A DNA stretch of 32,000 nucleotides from Planctomycetia bacterium (GTDB lineage: Bacteria; Planctomycetota; Brocadiia; Brocadiales; Brocadiaceae), in NCBI GenBank assembly GCA_015075005.1, contig JABTVC010000002.1, forward strand, positions 694,259 through 726,258, given 5' to 3'. Position numbers and translations under genes: made by a program. This document shows, one piece after another, positions 4,604-23,816 of this stretch (position 1 is its first letter; every line of letters starts with the position of its first letter). The notes beneath the pieces are model-generated. The model was given only the letters and a program-made list of their open reading frames with translations. It had not been told where the DNA came from and made no database searches.

Positions 4604-5971
<1,368 letters not shown>

Positions 5972-18659: not shown

Positions 18660-20486
18660 ATGTGTGGAATCGTAGGGTATATTGGACATAAAAATGCTGT
18701 CGATGTGCTCCTGAATGGTATTAAAAGACTGGAATATCGCGGGTATGACTCATCCGGAATCGCATTTATTGAAGACGGTATTCTAAAGTGCGAAAAAGCT
18801 GTAGGTAAGATCGCAGAACTAGAGAAGAAGCTCGACGGAAACAATTTCGATACCCATACCGGAATCGTTCACACGCGATGGGCAACGCATGGCGCCCCTA
18901 CCATGGAGAATGCCCATCCTCATCTTGATTGTCATAATGAAATCGCAGTCGTACATAACGGAATTATTGAGAATTACGATTATTTGAAATTAAAACTGGA
19001 ACGGGAAGGGCATGCCTTCAAGAGTGAAACGGATACAGAAGTCCTGGCGCATCTCATAGAGAAGTATTTTACGGGGAACCTTGAAATGGCGGTTATGGAG
19101 GCCTTAAAAGAAGTGGAGGGAACTTACGGCATTGCAGTGATTTCTGTAAAAGACCCAAAAAAAATTGTAGCCGCGCGGAGGGGGTCGCCTTTAGTGCTGG
19201 GAATTGGTAACCAGGAGTATTTTATAACCTCTGATATTTCCGCCTCATTGGTGCATACAAGAGATGTGGTATATCTCGATGATAACGAGCTGGCTATCCT
19301 TACTTTGGACCATTACGAAACCAAGACCATGCAAAACATCCCTACCTATAAAAAGGTGGAAGAGGTGCTGTGGAATATTGACATGATCGAGAAGGGTGGC
19401 TACGAACATTTTATGCTTAAGGAGATCCATGAGCAGCCAGAGGCGTTACGAAATGCTATGCGCGGGAGAATAGAGGGTGATCGTGGTTTGGTTAAACTGG
19501 GTGGATTGATAAGCTGTGAAAAGGAACTCCGTGAGGCTAAACGCATCGTAGTTGTTGCTTGCGGTACATCATGGCATGCAGGGCTTGTGGGTGAATACAT
19601 GCTGGAAGAATTGACGCGTATACCCGTTGAGGTAGAATATGCCTCGGAATTTCGATACCGGAATCCTGTGGTTGAAGAAGGTACTGTAGTGATTGCCATA
19701 AGCCAGTCAGGGGAAACGGCAGATACCCTGGCTGCAATGCGTGAGGCAAGGCACAAGGGTGCAAAGTTGCTTTCCATCTGCAATGTCGTTGGCAGCACCA
19801 TAGCCAGGGAAGCCGATTGCGGGATTTATTTGCACATCGGCCCGGAAATAGGCGTTGCATCCACGAAGGCGTTTACTGCACAGATTACCGTTCTCTATTT
19901 GTTTACCCTTTATATGATGCATCTCAAGTATCCCAATAACCCGCTACCTTACGATATGATTAAGATTATCCTGTCAATGCCCGATAAGATTCAGGCAATT
20001 CTCACAAAGGAAGAGGAGATTGTGGAGCTTGCAAGGATATATAAAGACAGTGAAAATGCCCTTTATTTGGGAAGGGGATACAACTACCCTGTGGCGCTTG
20101 AAGGTGCATTAAAGTTAAAGGAAATATCCTATATTCATGCCGAAGGCTATCCGGCAGCCGAGATGAAGCACGGCCCTATTGCCCTTATTAACAAGGATAT
20201 GCCCGTTGTTTTTATCGCTACAAAAGATAGCGTTTATGGAAAGGTTTTAAGCAATATCGCCGAGGTAAAATCAAGGGGTGGAAGGCTGATTGCAATTGCA
20301 ACTGAAGGAGACGATCAGATTAGAGAAAAAGTTGATCATGTCTTTTATATACCCAGGACTTCCGACTGCCTGACACCGATCCTTTCCGTAATACCGCTGC
20401 AATTAATGGCCTATCATATGGCAGTCATGCGAGGGTGCGATGTCGATAAACCCAGGAATCTTGCGAAAAGTGTAACGGTTGAATAA
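18660..20486 (+). CDS. glmS: Glutamine--fructose-6-phosphate aminotransferase
   Basis: MCGIVGY N-terminal nucleophile, HTRWATHG, two SIS domains (SQSGETADT), and the C-terminal KPRNLAKSVTVE. Confidence 0.97.
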   Translation: MCGIVGYIGHKNAVDVLLNGIKRLEYRGYDSSGIAFIEDGILKCEKAVGKIAELEKKLDGNNFDTHTGIVHTRWATHGAPTMENAHPHLDCHNEIAVVHNGIIENYDYLKLKLEREGHAFKSETDTEVLAHLIEKYFTGNLEMAVMEALKEVEGTYGIAVISVKDPKKIVAARRGSPLVLGIGNQEYFITSDISASLVHTRDVVYLDDNELAILTLDHYETKTMQNIPTYKKVEEVLWNIDMIEKGGYEHFMLKEIHEQPEALRNAMRGRIEGDRGLVKLGGLISCEKELREAKRIVVVACGTSWHAGLVGEYMLEELTRIPVEVEYASEFRYRNPVVEEGTVVIAISQSGETADTLAAMREARHKGAKLLSICNVVGSTIAREADCGIYLHIGPEIGVASTKAFTAQITVLYLFTLYMMHLKYPNNPLPYDMIKIILSMPDKIQAILTKEEEIVELARIYKDSENALYLGRGYNYPVALEGALKLKEISYIHAEGYPAAEMKHGPIALINKDMPVVFIATKDSVYGKVLSNIAEVKSRGGRLIAIATEGDDQIREKVDHVFYIPRTSDCLTPILSVIPLQLMAYHMAVMRGCDVDKPRNLAKSVTVE

Positions 20487-20523
20487 TGCCTCAAATTTGA
20501 TAGGCAATGACTACCCTCCCCGC

Positions 20524-22013
20524 TTAACGGCGCCGTGATCCGCCGAGGATACTGCCCAGCACGCCACGTAATATCTGACGGCCAATCTGGCTGCCGACGG
20601 TACGGGCGGCCTGCCTGGCCACGGTTTCCGCCAGGCCCTGGCGTCGTTTTGTGCCCCACAGCAATTCTCCCAAGCGTCCTCCTCCTTCAGACTTTGTACC
20701 TGCCCGGGCTTGGCCAGACCGGGCCACGGAGGCGTCTCTTGATGTAGTCCTCCGGCTCAGGATCTCGTAAGCAGACTCGCGGTTTATGCGATAGTCGTAC
20801 TTGCAGCCTACCGGGCTGCGTGCCCGCACCGCTGAGCGTTCATCAGGCGTAATCGCCCCAATACGGCAGCGTGGCGGACAAATCAGGGTGCGCTCCACCG
20901 GCATTGGCACACCATTCTCCTGAAGGGTAGATACCAGGGCCTCGCCGATTCCGAGCTGGGAAATGACCCTGGCAACGTTGAGCCTGGGGTTGGTAACGAA
21001 GGTTTCCGCTGCGGTGCGCACCGCCTTTTGATCACGCGGGGTATAGGCGCGCAGCGCGTGCTGGATGCGGTTCCCAAGCTGTCCGAGGATATTGTTCGGT
21101 ACGTCGTCCGGGAACTGAGAGCAGAAGTACACGCCTACGCCCCTGGACCTGATAATCCGCACGACCTGTTCCACCCGCTGGCGCAGCACCGGCGGAGCGT
21201 CATCGAACAACAAGTGGGCCTCATCGAAGAAGAACACCAGCCTGGGCTTGTCGGGGTCTCCCACCTCGGGCAAGCTCTCGAACAGCTCCGACAGCAGCCA
21301 CAGCAGAAAGCTCGAATACAGACGTGGTTTCAGGATGAGTTGGTCGGCGGCAAGGATGTTAACAATGCCGCGGCCGCCGAGATCGGTGCGCAGAAGGTCG
21401 GCGAGTTCCAGCGCCGGCTCGCCAAACAAGGCCTCCCCTCCTTCCCGTTCCAGTGTCAACAGTGATCGCTGCACGGCAGCCACGGACTGTGTGCTTACCA
21501 GGCCGTACTGCGTTGATACCTCCTTGCGATTATCAGAGACGAACCCAGGAGGGCGCGCAGGTCGTCGAGGTCAAGCAGTAACAGGGCCTGGTCATCCGCC
21601 AGTTTAAAGGCGATCTCGAGCACGCCTGCCTGAGTGTCGTTGAGCTCAAGGATCCTGCTCAGCAGGGTCGGGCCAATTTCGCTGATCGTCGTACGTACCG
21701 GATGGCCTGCCTTGCCGTACAAGTCCCAGAACAACACCGGGCTGGCCTCGTGGGTGTAATCCCCGATGCCGATCTGCCCGGCGCGTTGTTGTATCTTCTC
21801 GCTGGTAGAACCGGCCAGCGCCAGGCCGGCGACATCACCCTTTACGTCGGCCATGAACACCGGCACGCCCAGACGTGAAAAGCCTTCCGCCAGCACGAGC
21901 AGTGAAATGGTCTTGCCGGTGCCGGTGGCGCCGGCGATCAGTCCATGGCGGTTACCGTACTTGGCGAGCAAGTGGACAGGCTGTTCACCCTTGCCGATGA
22001 GTATTTGATTCAC
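20524..22013 (-). pseudogene. DUF853/YjgR-type HerA-FtsK-like P-loop NTPase, with one frameshift near 21540-21553; a GC-rich foreign-looking gene
   Basis: AAGGAGG then 6 nt then GTG (reverse complement of 22011-22013). Motifs: [15 protein letters not shown] (Walker A), [30 protein letters not shown] (Walker B), and a C-terminal GSQIGRQILRGVLGSILGG tail. The N- and C-terminal halves join as ..[22 protein letters not shown].. only if one base is restored. Confidence 0.8.
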
Positions 22014-22436
22014 GTACAACCTCCTTATGGAAAAATGCAGTTGATGTTCCCGTAAGACAGCAAGGCGGAGTACACGTTCCTTCTTGTTCTGGCTCCAGTC
22101 GTCGCCCAACGTAGTATTTGGGTGATCGTATGTCTTCCATTATTCCTTGTCCATCCAATTCCACCATTCAATTTACCTGGATCATGCTCTTCATGGTTTG
22201 TGTAGTATAGTAACAAAATTACAGGTGCAATTTCAACCTTTGACCGAATGATATTTAAAAAGCATATGTTGCAATTTTTAAAAAGGAATAGGCCGAAATG
22301 TAATTGTTTGTAGCTTTTTATGTATCATGTTGTTATTGTAATAAAAACAGATCAGGGAAATGAAAAGGCAGGAAAAGCAGTATGATTATGTTTGTGGCGT
22401 TGGTCGCAAGATTAACTTAAGCGACGGTAAACATGT

Positions 22437-23816
22437 ATGGAAATTCATTGGTTAATTATTGCAATGGTTACCGGGGTTCTGGTGGGGGCCGTTATTACCT
22501 GGCTGCTCTGCAGGGCACGCATCGTAACGCTCAGCGAGCAATATATCGCAACTCAACAGGATATGGCACATGCACGGGCCGATCTTGATCTGAAGAGCGA
22601 AACAATTTCTCAACTTAACCAGTCGATCGTGCGACTGGAGACCACTCTCGAACACGAGCGTAAGGCCGCGTATGAAAAACTGAACATCCTTAATGACGCC
22701 ACTCTGAAGCTGGGCGATGCCTTTAAAGCACTTTCATCAGAAGCGCTGAGGAGTAACAACCAGTCCTTTCTGGAGTTGGCAAAAATTACCCTGGAAAAAT
22801 ATCAAACTGAGGCAAAGGGAGACCTCGAACAGAGACAGAAGGCCGTTGAGCAACTCGTCACACCGATCAGGCAATCCCTGGAAAAGGTAGACACCCAGAT
22901 TCAGGAGTTAGAAAAGGCTCGCATGCAAGCTTACGGAAGTCTCACGGAGCAAGTTAAATCTCTTGTCTATACACAGGAGAAGTTGCAGTCTGAAACGGGC
23001 AATCTGGTTAAGGCGCTTCGGGCGCCGACGGTGCGGGGTAATTGGGGGGAGATACAACTCAAACGGGTAGTTGAAATTGCCGGTATGCTGGAACACTGTG
23101 ATTTTTACCAACAGCAAACGGTAACAACGGAGGATGGACGATTGCGACCCGATATGCTTGTGCGGCTACCCGGAGGGAAAAATATTGTTGTTGACGCAAA
23201 GACACCCCTTCATTCGTATCTTGATGCATTGGAATCTCCAACAGAAGAACTGCGCTTGTCGAAGCTTAATGCCCATGCACAGCAGATTCGGACTCATGTG
23301 GCAAAGCTGAGCGCAAAATCTTACTGGGAACAATTTCAACCTACACCAGAATTCGTAGTTCTTTTTCTGCCGGGTGAAACGTTTTTCAGCGCAGCACTTG
23401 AGTCGGATCCGGCACTGATTGAGGAAGGTGCGAAACAGCAGGTCATCCTGGCAACACCAACAACTCTGATCGCACTCCTGCGCGCCGTGCACTATGGCTG
23501 GCGACAGGAACAGGTGTCTGAAAACACCAGGAAAATTAGCGACCTCGGCCAGGAACTCCACGAACGCATCGCCACAATGGTCGAACATCTCGCGAGACTC
23601 GGTGGATCTCTTGGAAAGGCTGTGGAGGCGTTTAATGCGGCAATAGCATCCTTCGAAGGACGCGTGCTCCCGTCCGCAAGAAAGTTTGCGGTGCTTGGTG
23701 CCGGAAGTAAGAAGGAGATCGGGGAGCTTACCCCACTCGATAAAAACACCAGGATTCTTATGGAAATGCAAAGCGAACAAGATCCAGCCTTACCTGTTCC
23801 TCCGGGTCTAAAGTAA
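22437..23816 (+). CDS. rmuC: DNA recombination protein RmuC
   Basis: N-terminal TM helix (WLIIAMVTGVLVGAVITWLL), a long coiled coil, then the nuclease-like core RPDMLVRLPGGKNIVVDAKTPL and VVLFLPGE..ILATPTTLIALLR. Confidence 0.88.
   Translation: MEIHWLIIAMVTGVLVGAVITWLLCRARIVTLSEQYIATQQDMAHARADLDLKSETISQLNQSIVRLETTLEHERKAAYEKLNILNDATLKLGDAFKALSSEALRSNNQSFLELAKITLEKYQTEAKGDLEQRQKAVEQLVTPIRQSLEKVDTQIQELEKARMQAYGSLTEQVKSLVYTQEKLQSETGNLVKALRAPTVRGNWGEIQLKRVVEIAGMLEHCDFYQQQTVTTEDGRLRPDMLVRLPGGKNIVVDAKTPLHSYLDALESPTEELRLSKLNAHAQQIRTHVAKLSAKSYWEQFQPTPEFVVLFLPGETFFSAALESDPALIEEGAKQQVILATPTTLIALLRAVHYGWRQEQVSENTRKISDLGQELHERIATMVEHLARLGGSLGKAVEAFNAAIASFEGRVLPSARKFAVLGAGSKKEIGELTPLDKNTRILMEMQSEQDPALPVPPGLK

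Follow-up and report, generated by a model that had tools for sequence, protein, structure and literature searches.

A compositionally foreign single-gene island between glmS and rmuC of an anammox bacterium, probably acquired second-hand from another species of its genus

The region directly 3′ of glmS is the classical attTn7 hotspot; Tn7 inserts about 25 bp past the stop codon of glmS. As to the later fate of acquired DNA, the amelioration of horizontally acquired genes is a concept reportedly due to Lawrence and Ochman. Within the protein family of interest here, DUF853, the structure of the E. coli YjgR hexamer has been solved (PDB 11kk, “HerA like helicase YjgR”, 6 chains), and no functional study of DUF853, YjgR or a HerA-like helicase was found in the searchable literature.

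In the window, i.e., the whole 32-kb stretch of DNA that was analysed, glmS is followed by a GC-rich gene island which we consider to be a real foreign acquisition, probably received at second hand from a congeneric species. The original prediction of inserted foreign DNA therefore holds in so far as the island is compositionally foreign and its site is empty in relatives, whereas two of the sources then proposed, a Tn7 remnant and a direct transfer from a high-GC donor, are not supported.

Composition and gene content of the island

Across 20500–21999 the GC content of 200-bp windows is 0.585–0.64, as against 0.43–0.44 in the left flank (20000–20499) and 0.31–0.44 in the right flank (22000–22399); in the rest of the window it is everywhere ≤0.53 at 1-kb resolution. 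Genome-wide, 1.5-kb windows have a mean GC of 0.422 (sd 0.041) and the island, with a peak of 0.613 (4.7 SD above the mean), is among the approximately four patches having GC ≥0.60. Its tetranucleotide distance is similarly extreme (z = 5.96, with 5 equally extreme windows out of 2581), as is the GC3 of the two ORF halves of its gene (0.75 and 0.70, z 4.5 and 3.8 relative to a genome mean of 0.427 ± 0.073), both of which rank in the top 11 of 2077 ORFs (≥200 aa); other ORFs of this genome with top GC3 values are accessory in nature (type I R-M, sulfatase, NYN, AcrB and phosphoketolase). The GC-rich island first recognized 3′ of glmS by eye is thus confirmed by the 200-bp and 1.5-kb GC, GC3 and tetranucleotide statistics alike. 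Since GC1 (0.66–0.67 vs 0.50) and GC2 (0.41–0.48 vs 0.37) are raised as well, part of the GC excess is protein-driven; indeed, approximately half of it resides in GC3 and is drifting down to the host composition, while the other half, which is expected to persist, reflects a conserved Ala/Gly/Arg-rich protein that purifying selection maintains (dN/dS about 0.12).

The extent of the island matches that of a single DUF853/HerA_C (YjgR-type) gene, which is encoded by the minus strand and is convergent with glmS. Its N-terminal third (21547–22013, minus strand; translation and PF05872, E 1.5e-66) begins with a GTG at 22013 behind an AAGGAGG and contains the Walker A motif GATGTGKT, while the C-terminal two-thirds (20524–21546, minus strand, post-shift frame; PF05872, E 2.2e-140) contain the Walker B motif VFFFDEAH and a basic C-terminal tail and end with a stop codon at 20524–20526, 37 bp from that of glmS. 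The two halves cover positions 7–156 and 159–502 of the 502-position PF05872 HerA_C profile, scoring 225 and 469 bits, respectively, vs a curated cut-off of 22; the match with PDB 11kk has an E of 6e-167 over residues 12–495, with both Walker motifs conserved. Profile and translations agree with the earlier assignment of a DUF853/YjgR-type NTPase having its own AAGGAGG and GTG start, and the protein, being homologous to YjgR, whose hexamer has been solved, is predicted to be a ring motor driven by ATP and belonging to the HerA/FtsK superfamily. The PADLOC matches are merely weak and generic HerA matches (best mad8, E 4e-14), so that the gene is not assignable to a defence system, and the NCBIfam matches, to CedD and HerA, are all sub-threshold. 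The two ATPase halves account for all family matches among the ORFs of 20487–22436. A promoter/terminator scan yielded consensus-level matches only, at a frequency near the shuffle expectation; a −35/−10-like pair at 22153–22125 arises from an 8–9 nt deletion relative to the other copies.

The gene lacks an uninterrupted reading frame in this assembly owing to a 1-nt deletion, which had been located near 21540–21553 and which, when five orthologous CDSs and the intact protein P0003 are used as references, falls at 21542–21546 (minus strand). One base is lost in the short homopolymeric run GGG(N)TT(T) (AA CCC on the plus strand), between …LRALLG and FVSDNRKE…. Intact alleles of 100/99% identity (P0003, P0004 and P0005) occur in other assemblies, and P0009, of 90% identity, is encoded on a 1.39-Mb contig; the 496-aa P0003 is 100% identical to the translation of the C-terminal part (20524–21546, query P0002) and, by inspection, identical also to the N-terminal part. 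Because an identical intact allele exists, the frame break may be an artefact, and for annotation purposes the frameshift alone is no proof of a pseudogene.

Borders of the segment and its distribution

As judged from alignments, the DNA foreign to the locus corresponds to 20487–22212 (1.73 kb), the nucleotide homology with same-genus copies covering 20490–22207/22212. On the left, the intact glmS (glutamine-fructose-6-phosphate aminotransferase; 18660–20486, plus strand; Pfam SIS and GATase_6/7) aligns at its 3′ end base for base with its relatives up to the TAA, and this stop codon is the insertion border; the 37 bp past the ATPase stop (20487–20523, minus strand) are, by blastn and alignment, a 3′ tail homologous to those of G009 and G011, and the homology to donor-type copies reaches within 0–3 bp of the glmS stop. 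On the right, blastn and alignment identify an AT-rich 5′ leader of the ATPase gene (22014–22139, minus strand; RBS AAGGAGG at 22019–22025), common only to same-genus copies with 77–80% nucleotide identity; in the copies outside the genus nucleotide homology ends at about the start codon. The leader is adjoined by the remnant of a cdd1-like helix-hairpin-helix gene (PF11731; 22140–22212, minus strand; alignment and tblastn), consisting of the last ~20 codons and the stop, which delimits the transferred segment on the right. This stub lies within the upstream 194 bp of the segment, and the corresponding gene is found intact directly upstream of the ATPase gene in G005, G006, G013 and G011 (e.g., L015:11035–11349, Cdd1 E 4e-27). 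The original description of the island as exactly gene-sized is therefore correct for its GC-rich part, which is one gene, but not for the inserted segment, which extends ~200 bp farther upstream and is AT-rich there. Since the segment contains AT-rich, genus-specific upstream DNA and a cdd1 remnant, its immediate source was probably a member of the same genus already carrying the gene; in view of this genus-type leader and stub, a high-GC donor as the recent and direct source is not supported in the form proposed, the high-GC origin lying further back.

The sole trace of a mobile element at the junction is an internal fragment (22215–22293, plus strand; element nucleotides ~235–320, approximately codons 7–33 of its ORF) of a multi-copy IS-like element. 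The latter, defined by two 1803-bp copies in G003 that are 99.6% identical, is 1.8 kb long and encodes a ~520-aa protein having no Pfam or NCBIfam family match; two further copies are present in the genome under study, and the element occurs in 14 of the 16 genomes of the genus, where copies and fragments together number as many as 7 in a single genome. There follow the native rmuC leader (22310–22436, plus strand), conserved with G007 and G002 by blastn and alignment, and intact rmuC (22437–23816, plus strand; Pfam RmuC, E 1.5e-101; synteny). No RNA family match was obtained with Rfam between 20000 and 23000, the repeat search of 20380–22460 returned only short repeats at chance level, none at the borders, and no mechanism-specific signature (TSD, TIR or att site) was found at the locus. 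An integron gene cassette was considered and rejected, the unit having only 37 bp past its stop, no attC-like inverted repeat and ~200 bp of its own 5′ leader; a genomic island was likewise rejected, the ORF and repeat searches having given no integrase or direct repeats and Rfam no match in 20000–23000.

An empty glmS–rmuC site was found in five relatives (G009, G008, G010, G014 and G004), in which rmuC directly follows glmS after 9–150 bp. One of them, the sister species G009, carries its ATPase copy at a different locus and, reciprocally, the site of its 3.7-kb insertion is represented in the present genome by ~126 bp between the same flanks (C12:1115769–1115896). The upstream breakpoints of these two insertions are only about 10–13 bp apart inside cdd1, a near-coincidence that hints at a common mobile intermediate, and a decayed transposase of the IS91 type (PF14319, E 1e-10) is present ~0.7–1.7 kb away from the G009 copy. 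Overall, the ATPase gene is present in 8 of 15 genomes of the genus and in 3 of 3 genomes of one other genus, and in none of the 28 genomes from ten other genera of the family; decayed copies are found in G001 and G011. Seven further genomes of the genus, one of them closed, likewise have the GC-rich gene within AT-rich DNA, and in seven genomes besides the present one the unit is found at loci other than glmS. The 3′ flank of glmS is itself variable within the genus; in G011 it contains 3.7 kb of inserted AT-rich DNA, which includes part of a transposase.

Outside the genus, ATPase relatives with 70–77% amino acid identity reside in genomes of 0.62–0.72 GC, where the GC of the gene equals that of its flanks, and the closest ones (82–83%) reside in mid-GC hosts, where they form GC-rich, roughly gene-sized bumps. 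Copies with 75–85% identity, usually present as a GC-rich bump, are scattered over Gemmatimonadota, Methylomirabilota/Rokubacteria, Acidobacteriota, Desulfobacterota and Planctomycetota, and the gene tree of the ATPase scrambles phyla. All copies found in a metagenome search have ≤83% identity, and an exact-match scan of JGI metagenome contigs with the glmS|island junction 30-mer gave no match. A plasmid vehicle was rejected, since the 31 matches in a plasmid collection all have <60% identity and are mostly chromids or mislabelled chromosomes.

Divergence, amelioration and the history of the segment

Synonymous divergence (dS) was calculated by the NG86 method with two housekeeping genes, glmS and rmuC, as the yardstick, of which the latter shows signs of recombination in certain pairs (G005). 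Within clade B (G005, G006, G013 and G011) the dS of the ATPase gene (0.24–0.41) is roughly equal to that of glmS (0.29–0.50), an agreement that calibrates the clock. When G000 or G009 is compared with clade B, the ATPase dS is 0.33–0.57 as against 0.87–1.37 for glmS and 0.64–0.91 for rmuC; between G000 and G009 the corresponding values are 0.53, 0.18 and 0.41. Being unlike those of the housekeeping genes, the synonymous divergences of the ATPase gene point to two independent transfers within the genus. Furthermore, its lineage-specific synonymous changes are 89 S → W (GC-to-AT) vs 16 W → S, compared to 61 and 56, respectively, in the rmuC control, a bias indicating that the gene is of high-GC origin and still ameliorating. 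Altogether, the gene displays the atypical composition, patchy distribution, incongruent divergence and bias towards the host composition by which horizontally acquired genes are recognized.

The direction and number of the transfers, as well as the mechanism of recombination, are what we infer from these data. In a first step, the genus would have received the ATPase gene from a high-GC lineage; the gene would have become established 3′ of cdd1 in the clade of G005, G006, G013 and G011, to be vertically inherited thereafter. In a second step, the segment consisting of the cdd1 3′ end, the leader and the ATPase gene would have moved laterally, at least twice, into the clade of the present genome, landing between glmS and rmuC here and elsewhere in the genome of the sister species, G009. 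Insertion of 20487–22212 into the short glmS–rmuC spacer would have occurred by illegitimate recombination, possibly IS-associated.

An alternative, to which we assign little probability, is that a single ancient acquisition by the ancestor of the genus was inherited vertically, with intragenomic translocations and many losses and no gene flow between species. Indeed, monophyly of all nine copies of the genus is not rejected by an AU test (p 0.39), which is compatible with one primary acquisition or with several, the amino acid identities of the ATPase (78–90%) fall within the housekeeping range (81–94%), and the decayed copies in G001 and G011 demonstrate that losses do happen. These premises are difficult to reconcile with a G000–G009 ATPase dS about 1.3–3 times the housekeeping value, with an ATPase dS of G000/G009 vs clade B of about half that value, given that the rates agree within clade B, and with the reciprocal empty sites of the sister species. 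Equally doubtful is a broader reading, in which leader and DUF853 ATPase constitute a self-contained single-gene module, repeatedly exchanged among anammox species and across phyla without recognisable mobility machinery, and either kept by a conditionally strong benefit or moved by a shared mobile intermediate. The benefit could lie, e.g., in a defence-like role of the HerA/FtsK-type motor or in its handling of DNA, and the near-coincident cdd1 breakpoints could be traces of the intermediate.

An assembly artefact, i.e., a chimeric join by which a fragment of a co-occurring organism was spliced into the contig, was among the original options and is very improbable, even though the assembly is of the metagenome type, with 22 contigs, 3.3% contamination and several broken genes. 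Two joins 1.7 kb apart, exactly between syntenic genes, would be needed in a 1.57-Mb contig, the leader and cdd1 stub are AT-rich DNA of the genus type and not of a high-GC contaminant, and independent Logan/ENA assemblies yield an identical protein call that comprises the in-frame extension upstream. The flanks are syntenic with relatives, and the gene-in-AT-rich-context recurs in the seven congeners and, among closed genomes, in G005 and G048. It is just as hard to accept that the GC richness is intrinsic, due to selection on codons or to biased gene conversion. To be sure, many unrelated hosts of mid GC likewise have flanks poorer in GC than the gene, its GC3 is still 0.72–0.74 in six copies, and with GC1 and GC2 raised part of the excess is protein-driven; but the synonymous changes run from GC to AT in every lineage, so that the 89:16 ratio places the gene far from compositional equilibrium, and neither the patchy distribution nor the differing loci favour this explanation.

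That the segment is what remains of a Tn7-like (or other site-specific) element at attTn7, having since lost its transposition genes and ends, is hardly credible: its position immediately 3′ of glmS, the variability of this flank in the genus, with the insert of G011, and the adjoining IS-like fragment, which loosely fits a stripped element, are outweighed by the junction lying 0–3 bp past the stop codon instead of about 25 bp, by a cargo border inside a chromosomal gene, unlike that of a precise transposon, by the same unit occupying non-glmS loci in seven other genomes, and by the lack of any transposase or integrase ORF between glmS and rmuC, of tnsA/B/C (+D/E) genes or remnants in 20487–22436 (ORFs with family search), and of flanking direct repeats, terminal inverted ends with TnsB sites or a 5-bp target duplication in 20380–22460. 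These searches concur with what had been read from the sequence concerning transposase genes, Tn7-like ends and repeats; a genome search for TnsA (PF08722) gave no match in this genome or in the control genomes and so carries no weight here.

Second-hand acquisition from a congener thus offers a well-resolved natural case of two-step horizontal transfer, in which sister species have reciprocal empty sites and ongoing amelioration can be measured. It would imply that genes flow between anammox species, whose habitats are mostly mixed reactor and sediment communities, and that the 3′ flank of glmS can be a site of rearrangement without Tn7. The case is one of clear but ordinary horizontal gene transfer, with no new kind of element and no new function; for annotation, the island is to be treated as real host DNA and the Tn7 idea can be dropped.

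Comparison with known systems

With Tn7-family elements at attTn7 the segment shares only its position 3′ of glmS, and it differs from them in lacking tnsABCDE, Tn7 ends and a 5-bp duplication, in how far it lies from the stop codon and in that one of its borders falls within a chromosomal gene. The one-ended mobilisation by IS91/ISCR elements is a lead: a single adjacent gene is moved with ragged borders, and a decayed fragment of the IS91-type Zn-binding domain is present, albeit near the G009 copy only, the locus in the window having no IS91 sequence and no oriIS or terIS being identified.

The protein resembles E. coli YjgR (PDB 11kk) over its full length (residues 12–495 vs 17–503, E 6e-167), in its Walker A and Walker B motifs, its size of ~500 aa and its basic, Gly-rich C-terminal tail; in both cases the gene is solitary, without a partner nuclease. 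Identity, estimated by tblastn of the G005 ortholog vs E. coli records, is nevertheless roughly 50% and the gene is here accessory, laterally moving and, in this assembly, frameshifted. Finally, like classical ameliorating acquired genes, it combines atypical GC, GC3 and tetranucleotide composition with patchiness, an incongruent history and a directional bias towards its host. Unlike these, the unit is a single gene without integrase, tRNA or repeats, and its insertion at this locus would be second-hand, i.e., the relocation between congeners of a foreign gene that was already resident in the genus.

Composition of the island and its single gene

At the GC-rich island (20487-22140) a YjgR-type ATPase gene has genuinely been acquired by horizontal transfer, at second hand and within clear-cut borders. 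GC, taken in 200-bp windows, stays at 0.43-0.44 as far as 20499, then runs at 0.585-0.64 over 20500-21999, 0.535 at 21900-22099 and 0.31-0.44 beyond, and no other part of the 32-kb window comes near the island's GC. Measured against the whole genome (3.89 Mb in 22 contigs, the window being G000:C12:694259-726258 of a 1.57-Mb contig), the island has a GC of 0.613 versus a mean of 0.422 (sd 0.041, 1.5-kb windows) and lies 6 SD out in strand-symmetric tetranucleotide distance, while the GC3 of the two halves of the ATPase gene is 0.75 and 0.70 versus 0.427 ± 0.073 in 2077 long ORFs genome-wide. The abrupt compositional flip of the original prediction is thus sharp and real by sliding-window GC, GC3 and tetranucleotide distance. 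The remaining highest-GC3 ORFs of this genome are accessory (type I restriction-modification, sulfatase, NYN, DUF4410, AcrB, phosphoketolase, glycosyltransferase and Zn-ADH) and therefore high GC marks acquired genes, not the anammox core; two HZS_alpha-domain proteins are encoded. Further GC-rich patches (C12:104000-117500, C12:222000-236500, C1:1195500-1198300 and C12:929500-932500), reaching 0.63 in GC and 0.81 in GC3, carry the genes of a type I restriction-modification system, a phosphoketolase, an M48-like peptidase and an NYN-domain protein, and are probably more acquisitions from high-GC donors.

The ATPase gene occupies 20524-22013 on the minus strand, with a GTG start at 22013, the ribosome-binding site AAGGAGG and a stop at 20524-20526, 37 bp from the stop of the convergent glmS. 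Translation, the PF05872 (HerA_C/DUF853) profile, matched almost end to end by the two gene halves together, and orthologue comparison all bear out the single DUF853/YjgR-type gene that had been predicted here with its consensus AAGGAGG, its convergence with glmS and its one frameshift. Both Walker motifs are intact (A, GATGTGKT; B, VFFFDEAH); the reading frame switches just ahead of FVSDNRKE, where comparison with five orthologues places the loss of one base in GGG(N)TT(T) (plus strand, 21542-21546). P0003, a 496-aa protein from a large protein database (Logan and ENA), is encoded on 4 contigs of up to 138 kb. It matches the C-terminal part of the window's protein at 100% identity and, by inspection, its N-terminal part also, and runs uninterrupted across the frameshift site; its near-identical counterpart P0004 is a 528-aa call that takes in an in-frame upstream extension as well. 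The existence of this intact identical allele, together with a dN/dS of 0.11-0.14 versus the orthologues, implies that the frameshift arose very recently or else is an error of the assembly, the second being, in our view, the likelier. Other genes are broken in this assembly: gltX lies in two pieces, a second, divergent gltX being present. The split gene (4637-5971) consists of two ORFs, for the catalytic and the anticodon-binding domain, and the second GluRS gene (C1:814942-816366) is 43% identical to it.

Anatomy of the inserted segment and neighbouring repeats

In five relatives (G009, G008, G010, G014 and G004) glmS is followed directly by rmuC, with a spacer of 9 to 150 bp, so that the empty site sought in related genomes does exist; in the genome studied the spacer is 1950 bp. 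Starting from glmS, the segment comprises a 3' tail (20487-20523), common to the G009 and G011 copies and reaching to 0-3 bp from the glmS stop, the ATPase gene, and an AT-rich leader (22014-22139) that only congeneric copies share, at 77-80% nucleotide identity, the nucleotide homology of copies outside the genus ending at about the ATPase start codon. There follows a cdd1-like stub (22140-22212), i.e., the last ~20 codons and stop (...YY.NHEEHDP...) of a helix-hairpin-helix gene, with a 1-nt deletion; in G005, G006 (two contigs), G013 and G011 the whole gene (104 aa, PF11731, E 4e-27) is the immediate upstream neighbour of the ATPase gene. Beyond lie an internal fragment of a 1.8-kb multi-copy element (22215-22293), the native rmuC leader (22310-22436), common to G007 and G002, and rmuC itself (22437-23816). 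From this anatomy it follows that the moved unit, excised from a G005-type locus, was [cdd1 stub - leader - ATPase gene - short tail].

ORF, family, repeat and RNA searches at the locus found in this unit no terminal inverted repeats, flanking duplications, RNA families, transposase or integrase, nor do its borders carry Tn7-type end repeats; a Tn7 remnant, suggested by the position downstream of glmS, is accordingly not supported. The glmS 3' flank varies within the genus (rmuC is next in six genomes, a methyltransferase block in six others, and G011 has a 3.7-kb AT-rich insert with a transposase fragment), with no sign across the genus of a dedicated integration system. The rmuC leader is missing in G009, where rmuC begins 19 bp after glmS, and among G000, G009 and G007 rmuC dS (0.38-0.53) is about twice that of glmS (0.18-0.22), a pattern that suggests recombination around this junction.

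The 1.8-kb element, present in 14 of the 16 genomes of the genus and reaching 7 copies or fragments in a genome (e.g., C1:1496181-1496673 in G000), encodes a ~520-aa protein matching no Pfam or NCBIfam family and possibly represents a family of insertion sequences not yet described. Its ends, TTTGTAACAC... to ...TAATACTATAGT, are set by two G003 copies of 1803 bp (L250:1568-3370 and L251:1566-3368) that are 99.6% identical, neither of which shows an obvious terminal inverted repeat or target duplication. At its 5' end the element has a palindromic MITE-like unit of ~152 bp, whose 27-nt arms (GTAACACTTTAGTTTTTTGAAAAATTA) flank a GC-rich hairpin; this unit also occurs alone (L147:1293-1444 in G003; several sites in G000), including in G005 (L015:10772-10921) and G006, where it is inserted between cdd1 and the ATPase gene. 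Directly 3' of the ATPase gene, G009 (L014:7412-7589) and G011 have a REP-like repeat of ~70 bp (CCCTGACAGGG... palindrome), which is also dispersed over no fewer than 10 sites in G000 (e.g., C12:802832-802906).

Two probable arrivals within the genus

The ATPase gene is present in 8 of the 15 other genomes of the genus, in all three genomes of one other genus and in 0/28 from ten further genera of the family. Every other copy is GC-rich against AT-rich flanks, and none of those in the other genomes examined adjoins glmS or rmuC. By glmS, clade A comprises G000, G009 and G007 (dS about 0.2) plus G008 and G014, and clade B G005, G006, G013 and G011 (dS 0.3-0.5), the dS between clades being 0.9-1.4 for glmS and 0.64-0.91 for rmuC. 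Inside clade B the dS of the ATPase gene (0.24-0.41) is in line with that of housekeeping genes, which fits vertical inheritance at the cdd1 locus. Versus clade B it is 0.33-0.47 for the sister species G009 and 0.51-0.57 for G000, each about half the housekeeping value, and between G000 and G009 it is 0.53, i.e., 1.3 to 3 times that value. The protein tree sets the window's copy apart as sister to the other six (SH-aLRT 96) and puts G009 with clade B. The G009 copy sits in a 3.7-kb mosaic with IS91-type transposase debris and REP-like repeats, a site at which G000 has no more than about 126 bp between the corresponding flanks; reciprocally, the glmS-rmuC site of G000 is empty in G009. Taken together, the dS mismatch, the tree and the reciprocal empty sites indicate two independent lateral arrivals into clade A, putatively from clade-B-like donors. 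Their upstream breakpoints lie only about 10-13 bp apart, inside cdd1, possibly reflecting a common mobile intermediate; the decayed IS91-family transposase of the mosaic (Zn_Tnp_IS91, E 1e-10; L014:4066-4700) is a candidate vehicle for one-ended mobilisation.

The copies of G014, G015 and the other genus stand much further off (dS of at least 1.2), with a lower GC3 (0.58-0.62); as an AU test (p 0.39) does not reject the monophyly of the full set of copies in the genus, there may have been one primary acquisition or several. Copies also decay: that of G011 is split. G001, which is very closely related to G005, has only a rearranged pseudogene made up of two fragments (residues 1-168 and 340-496; C34:690659-691162 and 2010075-2010542) about 1.3 Mb apart.

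Origin and amelioration of the gene

Of a recent direct transfer from a high-GC donor, one of the options originally envisaged, the high-GC origin stands, but the immediate donor of the insertion was a congener, as the genus-type AT-rich leader and cdd1 stub attest. The best protein hits span several phyla: relatives at 70-77% amino acid identity belong to Gemmatimonadota, Methylomirabilota/Rokubacteria, Acidobacteriota and Lysobacterales with genomes of 0.62-0.72 GC, where gene and flanks have the same composition, and the closest non-congeneric relatives (82-83%) come from mid-GC hosts, again as roughly gene-sized GC bumps. Phyla are mixed in the gene tree, and the putative original donor is a high-GC lineage. 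The same genus-type leader and stub, with the synteny of the flanks and the recurrence of the pattern in closed genomes, make an assembly chimera unlikely.

Lineage-private synonymous changes in six copies number 89 GC-to-AT versus 16 AT-to-GC (17 versus 5 in the window's own lineage), compared with 61 versus 56 in the resident rmuC, so that the base composition of the ATPase gene is not at equilibrium but is moving towards that of the host. Codon positions 1 and 2 (GC1 0.66-0.67, GC2 0.41-0.48) account for about half of the 19-point GC excess; this half reflects conserved protein sequence and will stay, which is why even old copies are still GC-rich.

The acquisition is of an ordinary kind; its details are instructive. 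A literature search found no functional work on the YjgR/DUF853 family; a hexameric structure has been solved (PDB 11kk, "HerA like helicase YjgR"), and the window's protein matches it at E 6e-167.
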